Source: Leptolyngbyaceae cyanobacterium
GTDB lineage: Bacteria; Cyanobacteriota; Cyanobacteriia; Phormidesmidales; Phormidesmidaceae
NCBI GenBank assembly: GCA_050331235.1
Contig: JBHJHA010000100.1
Coordinates: forward strand, 1-31,240
Direction of reading: 5' to 3'
DNA length: 31,240 nt
In this document: in pieces, positions 5,118-30,989 of the stretch
How positions within the stretch are numbered: the stretch's first letter is position 1
Layout of the letters: each line of letters starts with the position of its first letter
The notes under the pieces: model-generated
Database searches by the model: none
Seen by the model: the letters and a program-made list of their open reading frames with translations, nothing else
Told to the model about the DNA's origin: nothing
Made by a program: the position numbers and the translations under genes

Positions 5118-6818
5118 TTAGGCGGTGGATGACGGATTATCCGCTTGGGCGATCGCGGCCCCTGGTGAGAGTTCGTCTATGATTCGAAACCGGATGTGGT
5201 TGATCGCCAAATCACTGACCGAAAGCTTTTCTGGCTTATTAGTGGCGCTCATTTTACTAAAGGAAATGCCTTTGCCAATTTCGGTGTGATACCAAGCTAG
5301 CCCCATGAAGAACCTGTTCGGATAAGGCCCCCGCTCGATAATGTCATCAACATTGGACTCCATGGGTAACCAGCCTACGCCGGGAACATAGAACTCCAGC
5401 CAGACGTGGTTAAAGTCTGGCTCCAACGGCAAATGACGCCGCTCAGGATGGGGGGGACACTTATAGCGACCGATGGTGCGGCAGGCGATGCCATTGAGAC
5501 GTGCCAAAGCCAGCAACACGCCGACGTACTCGCCACAGGAGGCAATACCTCGTTCGAGGGCAACATCTGGGGTGTCGATTTTGGGTCGAATACCGTAGGC
5601 GAGGCGATCGTAGACGTAGTTGCGAATTTTAAGCATTTTTCGCAAGACGTTGGTCTCGGTGCCAGCGCTCTCGCGGGCGGCGTGCTTGATGGTGGCTGTA
5701 TCCATCGACAGCTCATCATCATCAATCAGATAGTGATGAAACTCAGGGGCCAAGGGCAGAGCGCCGTCGATGTCGTCGGGGGTCAGATGGTATTTGAGGC
5801 TATACATCTCAACGATCGCCTTCCAACCTACTAGTCCCCCTTGAAAGGGCTTGATCTGGTCAAACCGAAAGACTGCTACCTGCTGTCCTTCCTGTTCTTC
5901 GATGGTAAAAGGATGACCGATGGATTCGACGTGGCGAACTCGCTGACGCAAAGTGTTGGACGGTAGCGCGATGCGCCATTCCACATGGTCGAGGGCGATC
6001 GCATCTAGGGGCAGCAACTCCTCAACATAGGAAAGCTCGATCAAAAAGCCGTTCGAGAGGGTGTAGTTTTCAGTCGCGTCGGTCTGAAAGTACAGTGGAT
6101 GTATAAACGTGCGATCGCGGAAAGTCAGCTCATAGGGCGATTCGCTGTTAGGGTCATCGCGAATGTAGGGTTCCTCGCTGGCATAGACCACATAACAGAC
6201 CGGGGCTTGGTCGGCGGCAGGGGTATAAAAGGTGATGCCAGTGGGCGATGGATAGGGGGTAAGGGCGCTGAATTGAATCTTGCCGGTTGCCCGATCTATA
6301 CAGTAAACCGTTTGCTCAGTCTGATCGCAGACCCACAGCCCGGTTTCGTTTGCACTCAAGGTTTCGGGTCCGACCCCTGGTTGAGGAAGCTTGTCAAGGG
6401 ACTGGCCCGTGCGGCGGTCAAATAGATGGATATAGCCCGATTTTTGACAACTAATGTACACCGTGGTGTCCCAAACGGCGACACCGTTGACATCATAGGG
6501 AAGTCGGGCGAAAACGGCTGGTTCTAGTGTTTTGCGATCGCACCAAAAGACTTCCTGGCCCTGGGCAAACCAGAAGGTGTCTTGCCAGAGCGATAACCCC
6601 ACAACATCGATCCATGCATCTTCGGCCAGCTGATGCGAATTTAGAATGATGGTGTTGTTGGTCGCTGGGTCGATAGCGACTAAATAGCCCCTCACGACAT
6701 CAACGGAAAATAAAGAGTCGCTGTCAGCAGCTAGTCCTGACAGGGCATAGACCCCAATGGGGAGAATGGTCGATGGTTGCAATGTTCCATTAAGGGACCC
6801 GTGCTCATGCAAAGACAT
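5118..6818 (-). CDS. Transglutaminase-like domain protein with N-terminal beta-propeller-like region
   Basis: Catalytic Cys motif ASCGEYVGVLLALARLNGIACR and His motif NHVWLEFYVPGVGWLPME. The N-terminal half has repeated beta-strand blades (GLAAD, GVAVWD, GLWVCD, PTGITF). Confidence 0.85.
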   Translation of the reverse strand: MSLHEHGSLNGTLQPSTILPIGVYALSGLAADSDSLFSVDVVRGYLVAIDPATNNTIILNSHQLAEDAWIDVVGLSLWQDTFWFAQGQEVFWCDRKTLEPAVFARLPYDVNGVAVWDTTVYISCQKSGYIHLFDRRTGQSLDKLPQPGVGPETLSANETGLWVCDQTEQTVYCIDRATGKIQFSALTPYPSPTGITFYTPAADQAPVCYVVYASEEPYIRDDPNSESPYELTFRDRTFIHPLYFQTDATENYTLSNGFLIELSYVEELLPLDAIALDHVEWRIALPSNTLRQRVRHVESIGHPFTIEEQEGQQVAVFRFDQIKPFQGGLVGWKAIVEMYSLKYHLTPDDIDGALPLAPEFHHYLIDDDELSMDTATIKHAARESAGTETNVLRKMLKIRNYVYDRLAYGIRPKIDTPDVALERGIASCGEYVGVLLALARLNGIACRTIGRYKCPPHPERRHLPLEPDFNHVWLEFYVPGVGWLPMESNVDDIIERGPYPNRFFMGLAWYHTEIGKGISFSKMSATNKPEKLSVSDLAINHIRFRIIDELSPGAAIAQADNPSSTA

Positions 6819-17673: not shown

Positions 17674-18693
17674 CTACGTCGCGCTGATGCTCTCCTCGTG
17701 GCGAGGATTCCAACGCGATCGCGACTCTTCAATGTGCATGTTCTTGCGCTCTTTTTTGAGATGCCGGGGGCTGCTCTCAAAGGAGAGGGAAGACGGCAAA
17801 GCGTCGCCATACTCAGCCTGAATAAACGCTGAAACCGCTTCGTAGCTGGGGGAGAATGGCTCATCGATCAAGACTGCTGCTGCCTGCCCAGCTTTGAGCG
17901 CTGCCGAAAACAGACCAGTGCCGTCGTCAAAGAAGCGTTCCGTGGTCGCACCGTAGGCCGCATAAGGATGGAAAGACAAATCCTCCGGGGCGATCGCCGC
18001 AACCCAGGATGAGTAAATCCAATATTCGCCAAAGGTGCCAAACTCATTAGCCGTCCGCATCATTAGCTTGAGCCAATGTTCGTCAGACTGATAGTAGGCC
18101 TGCACCCGTTGAGCCATGGCTTTGAGATGGGCTTGTTTAAACCACATATGATGGGGAATAAACGTACCTGAGGGGTCGGCAACCGGTTCCACCTTGAGAA
18201 CGGAACGAATCCAGCTCGCCCAGGTATCGACGATTTTGGCATTGCCTGTCTCATTACTTTGCAGCAGCGCAAAGGAGTGCTTGAGCGTGCCACCCAACTC
18301 CTGAAAAATCGGCCAAGTTGCCACTGGCAGTAAGTCACTGTCCCAGACCATGTACCACTCAGAAAGATTGGGAATGCCCTCATAGGCGCCAACCTTTAGC
18401 AGCTGTTGGTAAAACCAACCGGGGGTATAAAGCGACTCACCCAAATCGAGCTCGCCACAGATCGTTTCTTTGGAGAGGTTCACCGGTTGAAAAAACGGTT
18501 CCTCGGCATGAACGAACAGGGGAGCCACTGCCCAATGCTGGGCTTGCTCCCGCAGCAACTCAACCTCTGTCCCCGGCGTCACGATATGAATCGCTCGCGG
18601 CTGATAGTGGTGGGTCAATCCTTCCATTACGGCGCGGGTATTCCACCGCGCCTTATAGAGCGGAATAACGAAGTCAAAAGCTGCTTTCGCCAT
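17674..18693 (-). CDS. Putative GT-A-fold glycosyltransferase-like protein (DUF6492-like)
   Basis: ATG 18693 lies 4 bp after the cyclase stop, with AGGAGG upstream inside the cyclase 3' end. N-terminal DFVIP, GWFYQQLLK, DxD motif YMVWDSD, FIPHHMWF and FGEYWIY. Confidence 0.65.
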   Translation of the reverse strand: MAKAAFDFVIPLYKARWNTRAVMEGLTHHYQPRAIHIVTPGTEVELLREQAQHWAVAPLFVHAEEPFFQPVNLSKETICGELDLGESLYTPGWFYQQLLKVGAYEGIPNLSEWYMVWDSDLLPVATWPIFQELGGTLKHSFALLQSNETGNAKIVDTWASWIRSVLKVEPVADPSGTFIPHHMWFKQAHLKAMAQRVQAYYQSDEHWLKLMMRTANEFGTFGEYWIYSSWVAAIAPEDLSFHPYAAYGATTERFFDDGTGLFSAALKAGQAAAVLIDEPFSPSYEAVSAFIQAEYGDALPSSLSFESSPRHLKKERKNMHIEESRSRWNPRHEESISAT

Positions 18694-18697
18694 AACC

Positions 18698-20464
18698 TTA
18701 CGCGATTGCCTCCTGAATGCTGGAGAGCACGTCTTCTTCAACGCTGGTTTGGTGGGCCACAGTCGAAGGATCTTCAAGGCCAACGTCACTACACAGGGGC
18801 TCAATCCCCACACCCGCGCGGGGATATTCACCACAAATCGCCTGGTATTCCGAAATTGCGATAATCAGCTCATCCTGCGTTATGACGTTGAGATAGCCAC
18901 ACTTGCCAATGGAGCCTTTGGGGAGAGGCGCAACCAGATTGTTACCCCGCTTTTGCACCATCTTTTCCTGCGCTGCCCACATGAGATCGCGGTCAAGCAG
19001 CACATCGCTCCACAGACTGAGGCCAAAGGAGCTGATCAGTCTCAAGATGCGATGAAAGTCGGTTTTGTTGATCCACTGGTGACGGTAGCTGAGATAGGCC
19101 CCAAAGCCCATGCCAATGGCGACAGCATGGCCATGGAGTAAACCAGCGGCAATTTCAAACCCAGGCGACCAGGTGTGTCCGTAAGCGTGGGGGCGACACT
19201 GGTGCGTTTCGTACAGATTGTCATACTCGGCTTCGACATAGCTGCGCATCGCCGCCGCTAAGATCTTTTGAGACAGATCGCAAATAGGAGCCTCAGCCTG
19301 ACAATCAAGGGTGCCAAAGCGAGTGGTGATTAACTCAGGCCCGGCCTGCTCCAGATAAGCAAACAGCTCGGCATCTTTAACCGTAGCCATCTTGATAATT
19401 TCGGCAATGCCGTGGCGGAGCCAGCCTTCCTTTAGGGTCTTAAAGAAAGCGCGGTCAGTAATCGAAAGGACAGGTGCGTGATAGGCACCAAACAGGTTTT
19501 TGTAGCCAAAGCCATCGCAGCAGGTGCGAGGAGAAGGACCGGCATCAATCCCCGCCACGATGGACGTTGACAACATGACATAGGGAGTATTGCGGTGATA
19601 AAGGGCGCAGGCCAAACCGCCGGTGTCAGTCAAGACCCCGCCGCCGATGATCAAAACCGGCTCATTCCGAGAAACCCCTAGGCGCTTGAAATCACCGAGC
19701 ATGCGCTCGACAGTGTGAATGCCCTTATCCACCTCCATGGCACGATAGACCAGTTTGTCTAGCTGAATGCCATGGTGAGAGAAGTAGTGCTCAATTTGCT
19801 CGCCGTAAAAACGCTCCACGTTTTGATCAATTAGACAAACGCATCGTCCTGCCGAAATGTACATATCGCGGAGGAGGGTTTCTTGGGGATCGAGGGAGTT
19901 TTCCAATACGCGAATCGACGTAAAGGTGCTAGAGGTCATTACCGCTTCGACTGTTTGATCATCGTCAGTGCTCACCACAAATCCTCGGCTTTGCCGATAG
20001 CTTGAAGTGGGATAAATCGCGTGGTGATCAGTTTCCACTAAATGAGCAGCTAAATCTCGATAGTACTCACCCTCAGGACCATGTACCAAAACCTGTAGCA
20101 GCTTCTCTTTTCCCAGAGACGACCGTCGAATCCGACTCGCAAAGTTTGACCAAGTAATGCCCGCTTCAACGTCAAACGCTGCAAGCAGTTCCGACAGCAA
20201 GCCGAAAAAGTTACTCAGTGGAGTGTTTAAACAACTCCGTAACCGACGGCAAGCAGAGAGCCCCTGAATCGCTCCGACCAGAGCAAACTCTTGACCCAAC
20301 TCAGGGGAAAAGGCGGGGGCGTTGATCAGCGCCAATAGCAGTTCTCGAAAGTCTGAACTGGCAAACAACTGTTCAGAACTTTTTTCTAATTCTTGCTCCT
20401 TCAAGGATTGGCTATCATACGCTGCAATAAAAGCCTTTACTGCTGAAGTAGTCGATGTCATCAC
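18698..20464 (-). CDS. Sedoheptulose 7-phosphate cyclase, divergent DDGS (desmethyl-4-deoxygadusol synthase, MysA-like) type with long N-terminal extension
   Basis: DHQS-superfamily motifs IGGGVLTDTGG, STSIVAGIDAG, KNLFGAYH, GIAEIIKMA and LLHGHAVAIGMG. DDGS-type AYGHTWSP lies within MRSYVEAEYDNLYETHQCRPHAYGHTWSP. Start is GTG 20464 or ATG 20461. Confidence 0.88.
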   Translation of the reverse strand: MMTSTTSAVKAFIAAYDSQSLKEQELEKSSEQLFASSDFRELLLALINAPAFSPELGQEFALVGAIQGLSACRRLRSCLNTPLSNFFGLLSELLAAFDVEAGITWSNFASRIRRSSLGKEKLLQVLVHGPEGEYYRDLAAHLVETDHHAIYPTSSYRQSRGFVVSTDDDQTVEAVMTSSTFTSIRVLENSLDPQETLLRDMYISAGRCVCLIDQNVERFYGEQIEHYFSHHGIQLDKLVYRAMEVDKGIHTVERMLGDFKRLGVSRNEPVLIIGGGVLTDTGGLACALYHRNTPYVMLSTSIVAGIDAGPSPRTCCDGFGYKNLFGAYHAPVLSITDRAFFKTLKEGWLRHGIAEIIKMATVKDAELFAYLEQAGPELITTRFGTLDCQAEAPICDLSQKILAAAMRSYVEAEYDNLYETHQCRPHAYGHTWSPGFEIAAGLLHGHAVAIGMGFGAYLSYRHQWINKTDFHRILRLISSFGLSLWSDVLLDRDLMWAAQEKMVQKRGNNLVAPLPKGSIGKCGYLNVITQDELIIAISEYQAICGEYPRAGVGIEPLCSDVGLEDPSTVAHQTSVEEDVLSSIQEAIA

Positions 20465-23655: not shown

Positions 23656-25143
23656 ATGACCCATGAGTTTTCTGAATCTGCCGACGCCGTAAAATTCCCC
23701 GCCGAGCTCTCAATCTGGACCAAGCTGGCCTACGGTGCCGGAGACATGGGGGCCGGCATGACATCTAATTTGATTGCGTTTTCCTTCCTCATCTTTTTGA
23801 CCGAGGTGGCAGGCATTCGCCCCGCGGCGGCAGGGACGATTTTGCTCATTGGTAAGGTGTGGGATGCGGTCAATGATCCTCTCGTGGGGGTTTTGAGCGA
23901 TCGCACTCAAACCCGGTGGGGACGTCGCTATCCCTGGATCTTGCTCAGTGCTATCCCATTTGGCATCACCTTTTTTTTGATGTGGCTAGTCCCGCCAGGG
24001 GGAGCTGGCTTTCGGTTTTGGTATTACGTGGCGACATCGGTGCTGTTCCAGATTTTCTTTACGACGGCCAATTTGCCCTATGCCACCCTGACAGCAGAGC
24101 TCACCCAGGATTACGACGAACGCACGGATCTGAATAGTTTTCGATTGGGCTTTTCGTTATTGGGAGCGATTATGGCGCTGGCTCTAGGACTCGTGGTGAC
24201 GTCTGTGATTGATCGCGCGGCGCTCCAATACACCGTGCTGGGGGGCATTTGTGCGATCGCGTCGGTCATTCCCCTACTGGTTTGTGTCTTTGGCACCTAT
24301 CCCCAAGCGCAGCGCACAGCTTCGGTTACCCAGGCCGAAACTGACCCCGGAACCGAACTGCCCTTTTTTGAGCAGATTCGGATTGCCCTGCAAAACCGAG
24401 CGTTTCTCTACGTTGTGGGCATTTATCTGTTTGCCTGGCTAGCCTTGCAGATTACAGCCAGCATCATTCCGTTTTATGTCACCTTTTGGATGGGGCTTGA
24501 CTCTTACTTTTTACCCGCGTTGCTGGTACAGGGAACGGCCATCATTATGATGTGGCCCTGTAACTTGCTGAGTCGCCGAGTGGGCAAACAGGGGCTATTT
24601 TTTATTGGCACTGGCGCCTGGCTAGCGGTGCAGATTGGTCTGTTCTTTTTACAGCCGGAACAGGTGACGCTGTTGTATTTGCTATGCGTGGCGGCCAGTT
24701 TTGGCGTGGCGACGGCCTATGTGGTGCCGTGGGCGATGTTACCCGATGTGATTGAGCTAGATGAACTCAACACAGGCAAACGGCGAGAAGGGATCTTCTA
24801 CTCGTTCATGACGCTTTTGCAAAAGTTTGGCCTCGCGGGGGGGCTATTTTTGGTAGGCATTTTTCTAGAAGCCGCCAACTTTTTGGCTGAGTCTGACATC
24901 CGCATTGTGGCTAGGCGATTTGTTTTAGGGGCTACGTTAGATGGGACGGGTTTCCCTCCGGAGCAGGCGATTCAGCCGGATTCTGCATTGTTGGCAATCC
25001 GCGCCTTCATGGGTCTCGTGCCCTTGACGCTGCTCTGTGGCGCCCTAGTTCTCTGCTATTTCTATCCCCTCACCCGTGAAGTGCACGGCGAAATCGTGCT
25101 TAAGCTAGCCGAGAAACGGCGATCGCGAACAGAACAGGAATAG
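23656..25143 (+). CDS. MFS glycoside-pentoside-hexuronide (MelB-like) cation symporter
   Basis: KLAYGAGD, WDAVNDPLVGVLSDRT.TRWGRRYPW, LTQDYDERT, WAMLPDVIE.DE..TGKRREG and YPLTRE; multiple TM helices. Confidence 0.93.
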   Translation: MTHEFSESADAVKFPAELSIWTKLAYGAGDMGAGMTSNLIAFSFLIFLTEVAGIRPAAAGTILLIGKVWDAVNDPLVGVLSDRTQTRWGRRYPWILLSAIPFGITFFLMWLVPPGGAGFRFWYYVATSVLFQIFFTTANLPYATLTAELTQDYDERTDLNSFRLGFSLLGAIMALALGLVVTSVIDRAALQYTVLGGICAIASVIPLLVCVFGTYPQAQRTASVTQAETDPGTELPFFEQIRIALQNRAFLYVVGIYLFAWLALQITASIIPFYVTFWMGLDSYFLPALLVQGTAIIMMWPCNLLSRRVGKQGLFFIGTGAWLAVQIGLFFLQPEQVTLLYLLCVAASFGVATAYVVPWAMLPDVIELDELNTGKRREGIFYSFMTLLQKFGLAGGLFLVGIFLEAANFLAESDIRIVARRFVLGATLDGTGFPPEQAIQPDSALLAIRAFMGLVPLTLLCGALVLCYFYPLTREVHGEIVLKLAEKRRSRTEQE

Positions 25144-26758: not shown

Positions 26759-29452
26759 CTACTGGCCAGCAACTGTCATTTGCTCAATTGAGGATGAATC
26801 GATTGGAGCATCCAGGTCGGTTTCTTCCTCGATTTCAACAATAGGGTTACGCCCTTTAATGAGCTCGATGACACGACTGACTTGCTCCGGGAAAATAACC
26901 ACGAGGGCATCTTCGGGAGCCTTTTCCAACGCAGTCTCGATCGCGGTTAGCTCATCTAACTCAACGGTATAGGGTATCGCTGATTGAGCACCTTCAGTGA
27001 TGCCTTGCACAATCAGCTCGGCGGCCTCACCCACAGGACGCCCGCGACCGTCATCGTCCTCTTTGACAATGATTTGATTAAAAAAGCTAGCGGATAATTT
27101 GCCCAGCCCAATCAAGTCTTCATCGCGACGATCGCCAGGACCACCGACGACGCCAATAGTGGTGCCTGACCACTTTTGCACAAAGCTGCCGACGGCTTCG
27201 TAGCCAGCTAGGTTATGGGCATAGTCAACCAACACGTGATAGTGTCCCATGTTGAAAAGGTTCATCCGGCCAGGGGCCTGCTCTGGCGATGCCTCAAAGG
27301 TGCGCAAAGCTGCTCGAATATACTCAACTTTGATGCCCTGCACGAAAGCAGCTAAGCTAGCGGCCAAAACATTGGCAATCATGAACGATACTCGACCGCC
27401 CAAGGTAACCGGGACCCGACGCACGTCCTCAATCCGGTAAACCCAATCCTGTTGTAAGATAACGAGCTGTCGATCATCGTAAACAGCGGCAATACCGCCC
27501 TGGCGGACATGTTCCTGAATGAGGGGATTTTGCGGATTCATTGAGAAGTAAGCAACTTTGCTGACCGCTTTGTCAGCCATGGCGGCGACGCGCTCATCGT
27601 CAGCATTGAGTACGGCATACCCATCGGCGTGGACAGCCTCGGCAATGACTCCTTTGACCCGAGCCATTTGGTCGATGGTGTCGATATCGCCCAGCCCTAG
27701 GTGATCAGCCGCTACATTTAGCACCACACCTACGTCACACTGTGGAAAAGCGAGTCCGGAGCGCAAGATGCCGCCGCGAGCCGTTTCGAGTACGGCAATT
27801 TCCACAGTGGGATCTTGCAAAATCACCTGGGCACTCTGGGGACCAGTCGTATCCCCTTTTTCAATTAGGCGATCGTTGATGTAGATGCCATCGGTAGTCG
27901 TAAAGCCAACCGCGTTGTAGACCTGCTTAGCGATGTGAGCAATCAAACGGGTCGTAGTCGTTTTACCATTAGTGCCGGTGATGGCCACCACTGGAATGCG
28001 TGTCGGCGTTCCCGGTGGGAACAGCATCTGCAAAATCGGGGCCGCCACATTACGGGCGATGCCGTGACTAGGAGCTAAGTGCATGCGGAGGCCAGGGGCT
28101 GCATTCACCTCGACAATGACGCCATCCGCTTCAGACAGCGGCTTCGAAATGTCGGTGGTGATCACGTCGATGCCCGCAATATCCAAATCGATAATGCGGG
28201 AGACCCGTTCTGCTAGCCACACGGTTTCTGGGTGGATGTCGTCGGTGCGATCTACCGCTGTGCCCCCCGTGCTGAGATTGGCCGTCGCGCGCAGGTAGCC
28301 AATCTCACCGGGGTTGAGCACTGTGTCCAAAGTTAACCCTTGGCGGTCTAACATTTCGTCGGTAGAGGCATCAAGCTGAATTTGGGTCAGCACCTTATCG
28401 TGGCCATTGCCGCGACGGCTATCTTGGTTTTCTCGCTCGACGAGATCCGCGATGGTGTTACGACCATTGCCCACCACGTGAGCGGGTACCCGCTCTGCCA
28501 CCGCCACAACTTGATGGTTGACGACTAAAATGCGGTGATCACGCCCCGCATAGAAGTGTTCAACAATAATCCCTCGGGAAACTTCCTTAGCGAGATCGTA
28601 AGCTGTCTCTGCGGCCTGCCAAGAGCAAATATCTGTGGTGATGCCGCGACCATGATTGCCACCCAAAGGTTTGATGACAATCGGGTAGCCCCCTAGGCGG
28701 TCGATCGCAGATTCGAGCTCATCCAGGGAGTAAATCAGCAAACCAGCAGGAACGGGCGCACCCATATTTTCTAGAATGGCTTTGGTCCGTTCCTTGTCGC
28801 AGGCGAGTTCCACTCCTAATACGTTACTAAACGAAGTCAAAGCGGCCTGTACTCGCTTTTGATACTTGCCGTAACCCAATTGAAAGAGATCGCAATTTTC
28901 AATTTCTATCCAGGGGATGCCGCGGTCTTCGGCTTCGCGAACCAACGCTTCCGTGGTTGCTCCCAATGAGGCTTCGGCCCTTAGGTCTTGGAGATCCCGT
29001 AGATCTATTTCTAACTCCCGCTGAGGATAGCTGCCGGTTTCCACGATGCTTTGGCACAGGCGTACGGCGGCCCGCATTGCATAGCGCCCTGCTGCTTCGT
29101 TCTGGCACTCGATCACCACCTGATAAATTCCAGCAGTGCTGGTTTCGCGGGTTCGGCCAAACCCCACGGGCATATCGGCTAACGTTTGCAACTCGAGGGC
29201 GACATGCTCAACGATATGCCCCATCATTGTGCCTTCACGAACTCGACTCAAGAAGCCGCCGCGACATCCAGGTGAACAAAAATGTTCTTCGAGGCTCGGT
29301 AAGGTTTGTACTAAGGCGTCATAAAAACCGGGTAGCGTATCAGAGGGACTATCCATTAAGTCTTCCAAATCAAGCCGAACAACAATCAGCTTTTGGCGGC
29401 GAATACTCCAGTAGTTGGGGCCGCGGAGCGTTCGAGTTTGAAGAATTTTCAT
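26759..29452 (-). CDS. cphA: Cyanophycin synthetase (CphA1 type)
   Basis: N-domain MKILQTRTLRGPNYWS..HFCS..GHIVEHVALEL, ATP-grasp domain (VIKPLGGNHGRG, EVNAAPGLRMH) and Mur-ligase domain (ITGTNGKTTT, ETARGG, DYAHN); 897 aa. Confidence 0.97.
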   Translation of the reverse strand: MKILQTRTLRGPNYWSIRRQKLIVVRLDLEDLMDSPSDTLPGFYDALVQTLPSLEEHFCSPGCRGGFLSRVREGTMMGHIVEHVALELQTLADMPVGFGRTRETSTAGIYQVVIECQNEAAGRYAMRAAVRLCQSIVETGSYPQRELEIDLRDLQDLRAEASLGATTEALVREAEDRGIPWIEIENCDLFQLGYGKYQKRVQAALTSFSNVLGVELACDKERTKAILENMGAPVPAGLLIYSLDELESAIDRLGGYPIVIKPLGGNHGRGITTDICSWQAAETAYDLAKEVSRGIIVEHFYAGRDHRILVVNHQVVAVAERVPAHVVGNGRNTIADLVERENQDSRRGNGHDKVLTQIQLDASTDEMLDRQGLTLDTVLNPGEIGYLRATANLSTGGTAVDRTDDIHPETVWLAERVSRIIDLDIAGIDVITTDISKPLSEADGVIVEVNAAPGLRMHLAPSHGIARNVAAPILQMLFPPGTPTRIPVVAITGTNGKTTTTRLIAHIAKQVYNAVGFTTTDGIYINDRLIEKGDTTGPQSAQVILQDPTVEIAVLETARGGILRSGLAFPQCDVGVVLNVAADHLGLGDIDTIDQMARVKGVIAEAVHADGYAVLNADDERVAAMADKAVSKVAYFSMNPQNPLIQEHVRQGGIAAVYDDRQLVILQQDWVYRIEDVRRVPVTLGGRVSFMIANVLAASLAAFVQGIKVEYIRAALRTFEASPEQAPGRMNLFNMGHYHVLVDYAHNLAGYEAVGSFVQKWSGTTIGVVGGPGDRRDEDLIGLGKLSASFFNQIIVKEDDDGRGRPVGEAAELIVQGITEGAQSAIPYTVELDELTAIETALEKAPEDALVVIFPEQVSRVIELIKGRNPIVEIEEETDLDAPIDSSSIEQMTVAGQ

Positions 29453-29769
29453 AGTCAGATAAAGGAGTTGACTCAGGTTTTAACGGAATAGTGTTGTTAG
29501 TACAGTTTTTGAATTTCTAACAGAAGAAGCTAGTCAAATCTTCCCTCAAAGGATGGGAGTTGCGCAGCATAGAGCGGTTGATACTGACGATTAGTTAATA
29601 CATTCAGCTTACGCGCACCGGGGAATTAATTTATGGATTCTATTGAACAGTTTTGAACCCGACGGTTGATTTTTTGATATTGCTCCTGAAAGAGAATCAA
29701 TCCAAAAATCTTTATTGTGAATGACTCACTCAACCCTGGAATGGGATCATTAGAAGTTGAGAAGTAACT

Positions 29770-29783
29770 GTAGTAGATAATAC
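29770..29783. promoter_or_regulatory. NtcA-consensus site in the cphB-cphA spacer
   Basis: GTA-GTAGATAA-TAC matches GTA-N8-TAC. I found no perfect TAN3T -10 box 22 nt downstream. Confidence 0.45.
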
Positions 29784-29933
29784 CAATCGGGTTGCGTTAG
29801 GGAAGAATGTCTTTGTTATCAGTCTATGACATTTGCCTGATTGTCTTTGTCCTAAAGCTAACTTTGTGTATTGGAAACAGCTTTGATAGTTTGAAGCCTT
29901 TAGCGGCCGCGCAGTTATGAAATAGTAGGCGGC

Positions 29934-30767
29934 TTAGAACCTAGACACCATTTCTAAACTGGGTAAAAGAACTGACCGCTTTTTATAGTTGTAGAAATCT
30001 CCTGCACTCAAGATGTGGACTCGGAGATTATGTAGGCTCAATGGGGTCGTCACATCAGAAAAACGATGGTTGGTATAGGTGAGCTCACCGGCATCAATCA
30101 CGGTAATCGTTCCTTTGCCAATGACTTCAAAAGTTCCGTCCGTTTTAAATGCTGCACAGGTATCTTCATCGATGCCGATACCGAGCTTGTCAGGATAGGC
30201 CGCGATCGCGCTTACCAAGCGAGCCATCCGATTACGATTCTGAAAATGTTGATCAACAAGTAGCTCTGGGATGAGACCGAGACCATCCATTAGATCTACG
30301 AGGGAACGATTGGGAGACTCACCACTACTGCCACCTGAAATCATTCGTTCACCCATGACGGCGGCACCCGCACTAGTACCGGCTAGCACCAGCGACCCCA
30401 TCAAGCGCCGCCGCTTAATCTGTGAGATAAAGACACTGTCGTGAATTAAGTTGAAGAGACGCACTTGATCTCCCCCAGAGAGAAAGATGCCAGTGCAGTC
30501 ATTCAACAAATCTAACCAGCGGGGCTGGTCACATTCGCCTGACTGACGAATGTCAAGGACATGGACGGCTCTGGCGCCCAAATCAGTAAAGATGCGGTGA
30601 TAACGAGCACCGACTACTCCCGGCTCTTGAGACGCGCAGGGAACAATTCCAATAGTGGCCTCTTTCCCACCGGCACTTTCAAAAAAAGCGTTCAAAATAG
30701 CCCGCGTGCCGACCTTGTCTTCTGCCCCTCCAATCACAATGACGGGGTATTGGGTCGGATCTGCCAT
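29934..30767 (-). CDS. cphB: Cyanophycinase
   Basis: IGGAEDK, SGGDQ, catalytic Ser in GTSAGA, DQHFQNRNRMARL and GIGIDEDT. Likely start ATG 30767 (30809 also possible). Confidence 0.95.
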   Translation of the reverse strand: MADPTQYPVIVIGGAEDKVGTRAILNAFFESAGGKEATIGIVPCASQEPGVVGARYHRIFTDLGARAVHVLDIRQSGECDQPRWLDLLNDCTGIFLSGGDQVRLFNLIHDSVFISQIKRRRLMGSLVLAGTSAGAAVMGERMISGGSSGESPNRSLVDLMDGLGLIPELLVDQHFQNRNRMARLVSAIAAYPDKLGIGIDEDTCAAFKTDGTFEVIGKGTITVIDAGELTYTNHRFSDVTTPLSLHNLRVHILSAGDFYNYKKRSVLLPSLEMVSRF

Positions 30768-30989
30768 AACGGATTTTAAGAGAGTCGAACTACAAACAGG
30801 GAAGGACATGCAAAAAATGCATTTATAAACAATAGCTTAAATATTTGCAAGGTCAACAACAATATTTTTCCCGCGCTACTGGGCTAGGCGATCTTAGAGC
30901 TTTTAAAGCTGTGTTTCAATTCTTCATGATGCATATTGCCAGCTCCGAGTCATATTCCCTGAGTCATGTCAATGTGCAATGAGCTGACT

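Follow-up and report, generated by a model that had tools for sequence, protein, structure and literature searches.

A long MysA-type cyclase paired with a DUF6492 protein: an apparently undescribed branch off the cyanobacterial sunscreen pathway

A 31,240-nucleotide stretch of DNA from a Leptolyngbyaceae cyanobacterium (contig JBHJHA010000100.1 of assembly GCA_050331235.1; here 'the window') carries on its minus strand a two-gene unit composed of a long sedoheptulose-7-phosphate cyclase of the MysA/DDGS type and a protein of the family DUF6492. The pair represents a real, conserved and apparently undescribed branch off a known pathway, in which a known cyclase is joined by an uncharacterised transferase. 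In the favoured reading, to which a probability of about one half is attached, the cassette's long cyclase would supply desmethyl-4-deoxygadusol (DDG) and DUF6492 would combine it with a nucleoside diphosphate (NDP)-sugar, giving a glycoside of DDG rather than a mycosporine-like amino acid (MAA). As the unit recurs mostly without other sunscreen genes, it likely makes an undescribed protective molecule.

The cyclase gene (gene 1; 18698..20461, minus strand; 587 residues), assigned by Pfam, PDB search and identity to a Halothece enzyme, starts at an ATG at 20461, with an in-frame GTG at 20464, and its stop ends at 18698. Gene 2 (17674..18693, minus strand) encodes a 339-residue DUF6492 (PF20102) protein, predicted from Pfam (E 3.5e-11), AlphaFold2 (AF2) modelling, fold searches and Atlas to be a GT-A-fold nucleotide-sugar-dependent transferase. 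The open reading frames 20461–18698 and 18693–17674 bear out the two-gene minus-strand unit of the original prediction; the 4-bp gap between the gene 1 stop and the gene 2 ATG (18694..18697, minus strand) is also present in five AT-rich marine cassettes (L183, L201, L211–L213).

Recurrence of the gene pair

The pairing of cyclase and gene 2 is far beyond chance, because gene 2 lies directly behind the cyclase in 18 of the 19 long-cyclase relatives (among 41 relatives in all), the nineteenth ending at a contig edge. Cyclase classes, gene 2, MysB and MysC were searched for in 401 genomes sampled evenly from the class; weak cyclase rows (G100, G309), a decayed gene 2 fragment (G314) and MysC-like rows at 29–34% identity (G156, G352 and the second G394 match) were left out of the tally. 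Long cyclases occur in 51 of these genomes, mid-length cyclases in 8 and canonical cyclases in 48. All 38 genomes with gene 2 carry a long cyclase, which is adjacent in 35, split from gene 2 at contig ends in 1 and unlinked in 2 (G345 and G363). The linkage of gene 2 homologues to cyclases elsewhere, on which the original prediction hinged, is therefore seen both in the 18 relatives and in the 35 adjacent carriers. The three cyclase classes are almost mutually exclusive within a genome, only G151 having two (long and mid-length).

The best 80 of 183 GTDB gene 2 loci were examined. A long cyclase lies directly upstream in 63 of them, a mid-length (~450-residue) cyclase is convergent in 3, and 14 have none, of which 3 are at contig ends and 11 have ample flank. 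Each of the five genomes tested from among those 14 has a mid-length cyclase elsewhere (one match being partial), and three hold MysC. Pairwise identities of the two genes correlate over 108 loci (rho 0.69, 0 of 200 permutations), which indicates shared ancestry only, because duplicates are included and there is no control gene.

The 11 well-flanked loci without a cyclase, the two unlinked genomes and a decayed gene 2 beside an intact cyclase in G314 would suit mere co-inheritance. On that view the two genes would answer to a common stress regulation, with DUF6492 glycosylating a different target, and the DDG of the cyclase would be a final product or a leftover from an MAA pathway since lost. 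This explanation is distinctly unlikely, given that gene 2 occurs in 0 of the 350 sampled genomes lacking a long cyclase, that the coupling is kept over three phyla at 40–56% identity, and that cyclases without mysBC remain intact with an invariant active site.

The pair also extends beyond cyanobacteria. Of 86 metagenome gene 2 loci, 80 were kept: the cyclase is directly upstream in 63, 8 are without it and 9 are too short to tell. In nine complete marine cassettes gene 2 is 40–47% and the cyclase 49–56% identical to the window copies. Four of the nine are of moderate GC, and the L138 cyclase is a sequence that NCBI labels Coraliomargarita sp. TMED73; five have 26–28% GC and the 4-bp gap, and two members of the 90% cluster that contains the L212 protein carry the label Ca. 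Pelagibacter sp. Both labels derive from metagenome-assembled genomes. Both gene trees (one built by a quick method) place the same two marine groups outside the main cyanobacterial clade, on long branches from which no direction of transfer is claimed. No mysB or mysC was found on the short marine cassette contigs, the contigs alone being covered. On one Pelagibacter-type contig only, a mannosyl-3-phosphoglycerate-phosphatase-like HAD gene (L211:246-725) lies divergently beside the cassette, an osmolyte context.

The cyclase and the mycosporine genes

Gene 1 has the Pfam domains DHQ_synthase and DHQS_C, the two-domain make-up of DHQS-like cyclases, and it resembles DDGS more closely than EEVS or DHQS: its top PDB match is the DDGS 5TPR (E 1e-77), followed by ValA (1e-51) and DHQS (1e-23 or weaker). 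This ranking and the DDGS-type residues uphold its assignment as a DDGS/MysA-type sedoheptulose-7-phosphate cyclase. A DHQS was ruled out by the aroB profile score (138 bits, below the cut-off of 305), the PDB ranking and a separate aroB on contig C57 of the genome. The description of the cyclase as divergent did not hold, gene 1 being 72% identical to the characterised Halothece PCC 7418 enzyme P0208, which was equated with Halothece mysA by organism, name and length; judged by sequence, it falls within the long MysA clade of the Halothece type and is unremarkable there.

Halothece sp. PCC 7418 MysA matches gene 1 in its length of 587 residues, its N-terminal extension and its active-site segment, and, judged by this orthology, gene 1 likely converts sedoheptulose 7-phosphate to DDG. 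Halothece mysA (PCC7418_1590) stands apart from mysB–D (PCC7418_1078–1076), and together with mysBCD it yields mycosporine-2-glycine in Synechococcus (PMC12981126). The genome of the window (G000) differs from Halothece in that no mysB, mysC or mysD was found in it and in the coupling of its cyclase to DUF6492. Canonical mysABC(D/E) clusters (Ava_3858, PDB 5TPR) share the cyclase family and the DDGS fingerprint residues, whereas canonical MysA is ~410 residues long and ~38% identical to gene 1. The all-helical N-terminal domain of the long cyclase (approximately residues 1–150; 20012..20461, minus strand) gave no match in fold searches, which does not show a new fold.

The active-site segment (residues 408–433; 19163..19240, minus strand), aligned to 5TPR, contains the conserved H429 together with E412 and A426, both DDGS-type. 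These last two residues correspond to Glu254 and Ala268 of 5TPR and are unchanged in each of the 73 long and mid-length cyclases compared. The DDGS fingerprint consists of Glu254, Ala268 and Thr347, as against Leu267, Asp281 and His360 in EEVS (PMC10666671), and K504 of gene 1, at the Thr347 position, is of neither type; lysine also occupies this position in Halothece MysA and in all 73 long and mid-length cyclases. The departure from Thr347, the differing active-site loop of the Pelagibacter-type cyclases and a passage in one paper giving 2-epi-5-epi-valiolone as the MysA product (PMC11378024) could point to a long cyclase that makes that or another cyclitol, then glycosylated by DUF6492 as in streptol glucoside pathways. 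Such a route is highly improbable, as both mutagenesis-confirmed positions are DDGS-type, and Halothece MysA shares the segment, K504 included, with gene 1, as do copies belonging to mysABC clusters. The segment is identical in mysBC-linked and DUF6492-linked long cyclases, and the mysBC-linked ones do not form one clade (approximately unbiased (AU) test, p 0.0006).

The absence of mysB and mysC from the window stood up, and mysD is absent from it too; the genome-wide search proposed with the original prediction found none of the three in the 95.5%-complete G000. The nearest protein to MysB there was a 223-residue generic O-methyltransferase at 40%, MysC and MysD gave zero matches, and the linked FkbM methyltransferase was also not found; three ATP-grasp_3 matches are presumably RimK-, CarB- and PurD-like, judging from their N-termini. 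The MysB O-methyltransferase and MysC ATP-grasp ligase of the MAA pathway were thus not found in G000, and the glycosylated MAA suggested earlier cannot be the product there, because no mysC was found.

The same pattern holds across the 401-genome sample, where MysB and MysC were both not found in 30 of the 38 gene 2 carriers, which therefore likely make no MAA. Long-cyclase genomes without gene 2, from only three genera, have MysC in 13 of 13 and MysB in 12 of 13, with MysC adjoining the cyclase in 11. The canonical-MysA genomes, taken as a control, hold MysC and MysB in 47 of 48 each, which makes an artefact of assembly an unlikely cause of the missing mysBC; their count for a DUF6492 orthologue is 0 of 48. 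Every sampled long cyclase co-occurs with MysC, DUF6492 or both, as expected if both are alternative users of the same product.

Gene 2 sits within an MAA cluster in L072, L079 and L120, next to mysB in divergent orientation and often with an FkbM-type methyltransferase behind it, a position that also speaks for the coupling. An unlikely alternative builds on these loci: DUF6492 would tailor or anchor something bigger than DDG, either a completed MAA or a glycan of the cell surface (tying the chromophore into sheath polysaccharide, for instance), with no free DDG glycoside. It would fit the FkbM-type methyltransferase after gene 2 in 10 of the best 80 GTDB loci, the C-terminal extension of DUF6492 in L072, L096, L101, L105 and L112, with a weak Methyltransf_11 match in L072, and the glycan-type character of distant fusions in the DUF6492 family. 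It sits poorly with the 30 of 38 carriers, G000 among them, that likely make no MAA, and the neighbourhood of the pair has no recurrent exopolysaccharide, kinase or nucleotidyltransferase gene.

Several further observations concern these clusters. In G314, which has mysB and mysC elsewhere in the genome, the intact long cyclase is followed immediately by a decayed DUF6492 remnant (L125:3802-5026), which suggests that carriers lose gene 2 when MAA genes come to replace it. The mysBCD clusters of L127, L129 and L131 lack mysA, and genes for a HAD hydrolase and a TauD-like dioxygenase are linked to them; the only sedoheptulose-7-phosphate cyclase found in those genomes is the DUF6492-linked long one, and such cyclases may explain some 'mysA-less' mysBCD clusters. 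A glycoside-pentoside-hexuronide (GPH) symporter that could move a glycoside is encoded at the end of the DUF6492–FkbM run in one MAA cluster (L120:11982-13352) and behind the long cyclase in another (L126:1758-3152). Several marine MAA clusters (L072:3316-4896, L079:4040-5461, L219 and L220) encode a sodium:solute symporter (SSF), placed beside mysC or between it and mysD.

The DUF6492 protein and its putative reaction

Gene 2 matches only PF20102 in Pfam at E<=1. Its AF2 model (pLDDT 88.7, pTM 0.89) gave 135 Foldseek matches in the PDB at E<=0.001, the rows listed being GT8/GT6-type glycosyltransferases and Stealth enzymes, and the predicted model has a GT-A (nucleotide-diphospho-sugar transferase) fold, as the original prediction anticipated; it also fits a Stealth-domain fold. 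DUF6492 profiles had 0 matches among PDB sequences, apart from one chance match at E 2, and PHROGs and NCBIfam searches returned nothing meaningful. No relatives of gene 2 were found in phage, plasmid or viral-contig collections.

The motifs originally singled out, YVEAEYDNLYETHQCRPHAYGHTWSP in gene 1 and WDSD and GWFYQQLLK in gene 2, are all present. In GWFYQQLLK (residues 92–100; 18394..18420, minus strand), W93, Q96, Q97 and K100 do not vary across the 37 diverse members of the family that were compared. The DxD motif D118-S119-D120 (18334..18342, minus strand), predicted to bind metal and diphosphate, follows core strand 113–117 in the model, as in GT-A enzymes, and both Asp residues are invariant (37/37). 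E223 is invariant among the members, and an acidic residue occupies position 306 in all 37, within FES at 305–307; going by position alone, it could be the counterpart of UGGT's third metal-binding Asp (PMC8913297).

From these features a three-step route can be proposed. The long MysA-type cyclase, identified by sequence, would turn sedoheptulose 7-phosphate into DDG, as its Halothece orthologue is taken to do. DUF6492 would then act on this product, as gene linkage and the complementary distribution with mysB/mysC suggest. The predicted fold and residue conservation point to metal-dependent glycosyl transfer through D118/D120, K100, E223 and E306. One candidate acceptor site is the enol hydroxyl that MysB methylates, where, on chemical grounds, capping would stabilise the oxidation-prone ring; the other is the C7 hydroxymethyl, which is glycosylated in known MAAs. 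The scaffold prompts the guess that the product serves as a UV absorber, an antioxidant store or a compatible solute.

Plain glycosylation by DUF6492 is likely on the model but not settled, because the nearest solved folds are Stealth sugar-1-phosphate transferases, which weighs against it. In a Stealth-like reaction DUF6492 would transfer sugar-1-phosphate from an NDP-sugar to a DDG hydroxyl with release of nucleoside monophosphate (NMP), leaving an anionic, osmolyte-like cyclitol-phosphodiester-sugar. This variant is doubtful. Stealth enzymes have N-x-D, the CR2 Glu, the CR3 Arg and CLND/CIND (PMC10668966), whereas DUF6492 has D-x-D and lacks the invariant Glu in the helix before it, the conserved Arg before the FSEY helix and CLND. 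None of the 37 DUF6492 members has a Stealth Pfam match at E<=1; Foldseek places the GT8 enzyme XXYLT1 level with CpsY, and a viral library ranks four GT-type or other non-Stealth names and one GT8-type name above Stealth. The Stealth signature (CR2 N-D-D with Glu, CR4 CLND/CIND and Stealth_CR profiles) is absent from gene 2, which has D-x-D, K100 and FES; H181/H182 and R253 are candidate counterparts of the GNPTAB catalytic CR3 residues H956 and R986. The Stealth phosphotransferases CpsY and GNPTAB are 8–12% identical to gene 2, do not share their defining CR motifs with it and act on glycans. No Stealth genes were found in 151 cyanobacterial genomes, in a search whose control was also unmatched.

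Transfer of a sugar to this scaffold has precedents in other families. In the portions of PMC11378024 consulted, the MAA glycosyltransferases of Nostoc sp. UHCC 0302 are MysG (GT4) and MysJ (beta-1,6-GlcNAc-transferase-like), and MysG1 puts a hexose on C7. As proposed for DUF6492, they place a sugar on the same cyclohexenone scaffold, but they belong to other families and, as parts of full clusters, take finished MAAs as substrates; gene 2 is DUF6492 only, with no GT4 or beta-1,6-GlcNAc-transferase (core-2/branch) domain. The ebo cluster and the Burkholderia streptol-glucoside cluster likewise join a cyclase and a transferase towards a modified cyclitol (bioRxiv 2022.09.27.509721, PMC12904256, from excerpts). 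According to an excerpt of PMC12904256, streptol glucoside is a glycosylated cyclitol and ebo is cryptic, without a known end product. In contrast to the present pair, these clusters have cyclases of the DEIS and EEVS classes and larger gene sets, and the excerpts do not report DUF6492 in them.

A C-terminal extension of ~180 residues distinguishes some DUF6492 copies (L072:7965-9557, L096:8001-9596, L101, L105, L112, L194 and L200) from Hormoscilla, Dapis, Okeania and Trichodesmium loci. The extension in L072 gave its S-adenosylmethionine (SAM)-methyltransferase match (Methyltransf_11) below the cut-off, and the Okeania loci with extended copies have an MFS transporter and a sulfotransferase just downstream.

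Genomic setting and wider significance

The flanking genes were correctly named as purB (Lyase_1 and ADSL_C) and ribD (dCMP deaminase and RibD_C). The AGGAGG does sit in the C-terminal coding part of gene 1 (18714–18709), as originally noted, but its role as the gene 2 ribosome site is doubtful because its 15-nt spacing from the ATG exceeds the usual 5–10 nt. The GC content of the two genes, 53%, is that of the window, and the nearest named relatives mark the host as a cyanobacterium. No sigma-70-like promoter was found for the pair, terminator-like matches were at chance level, and an Rfam search gave zero matches. Elsewhere the window encodes an MFS_2 sugar transporter (23656-25143) different from the GPH symporter of L120 and L126, an ordinary cyanophycinase and cyanophycin synthetase pair (cphB/cphA; 26759-30809), and a 566-residue protein with a C-terminal transglutaminase-like domain behind an N-terminal region without assignment (5118-6818).

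A full-text literature search, with subscription journals and supplements outside its scope, returned no paper mentioning DUF6492 and no description of the cyclase–DUF6492 pair; the parts of PMC7826186 and PMC4426668 consulted contain nothing on the pair. In the surveyed literature MysA is the entry to mycosporines only. In 30 of the 51 sampled cyanobacteria with a long MysA, no mysB/mysC was found and DUF6492 is present instead, which points to another, as yet unnamed product made from the sunscreen precursor; MAA production is overcalled if mysA is counted as evidence for it. More tentatively, long MysA and DUF6492 may form a self-contained two-enzyme pathway that probably predates the long cyclase's use in MAA clusters, and whose product may be an undescribed DDG glycoside or sugar-phosphodiester, serving as sunscreen, antioxidant store or osmolyte in benthic/marine cyanobacteria, marine Verrucomicrobia and some SAR11. 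The pair offers the first candidate substrate for DUF6492 and extends this chemistry to contigs labelled Pelagibacter and Coraliomargarita. If the proposal is true, DUF6492 would stand between Stealth phosphotransferases and GT-A glycosyltransferases as a new family of transferases, and its product would be an unrecognised marine metabolite.
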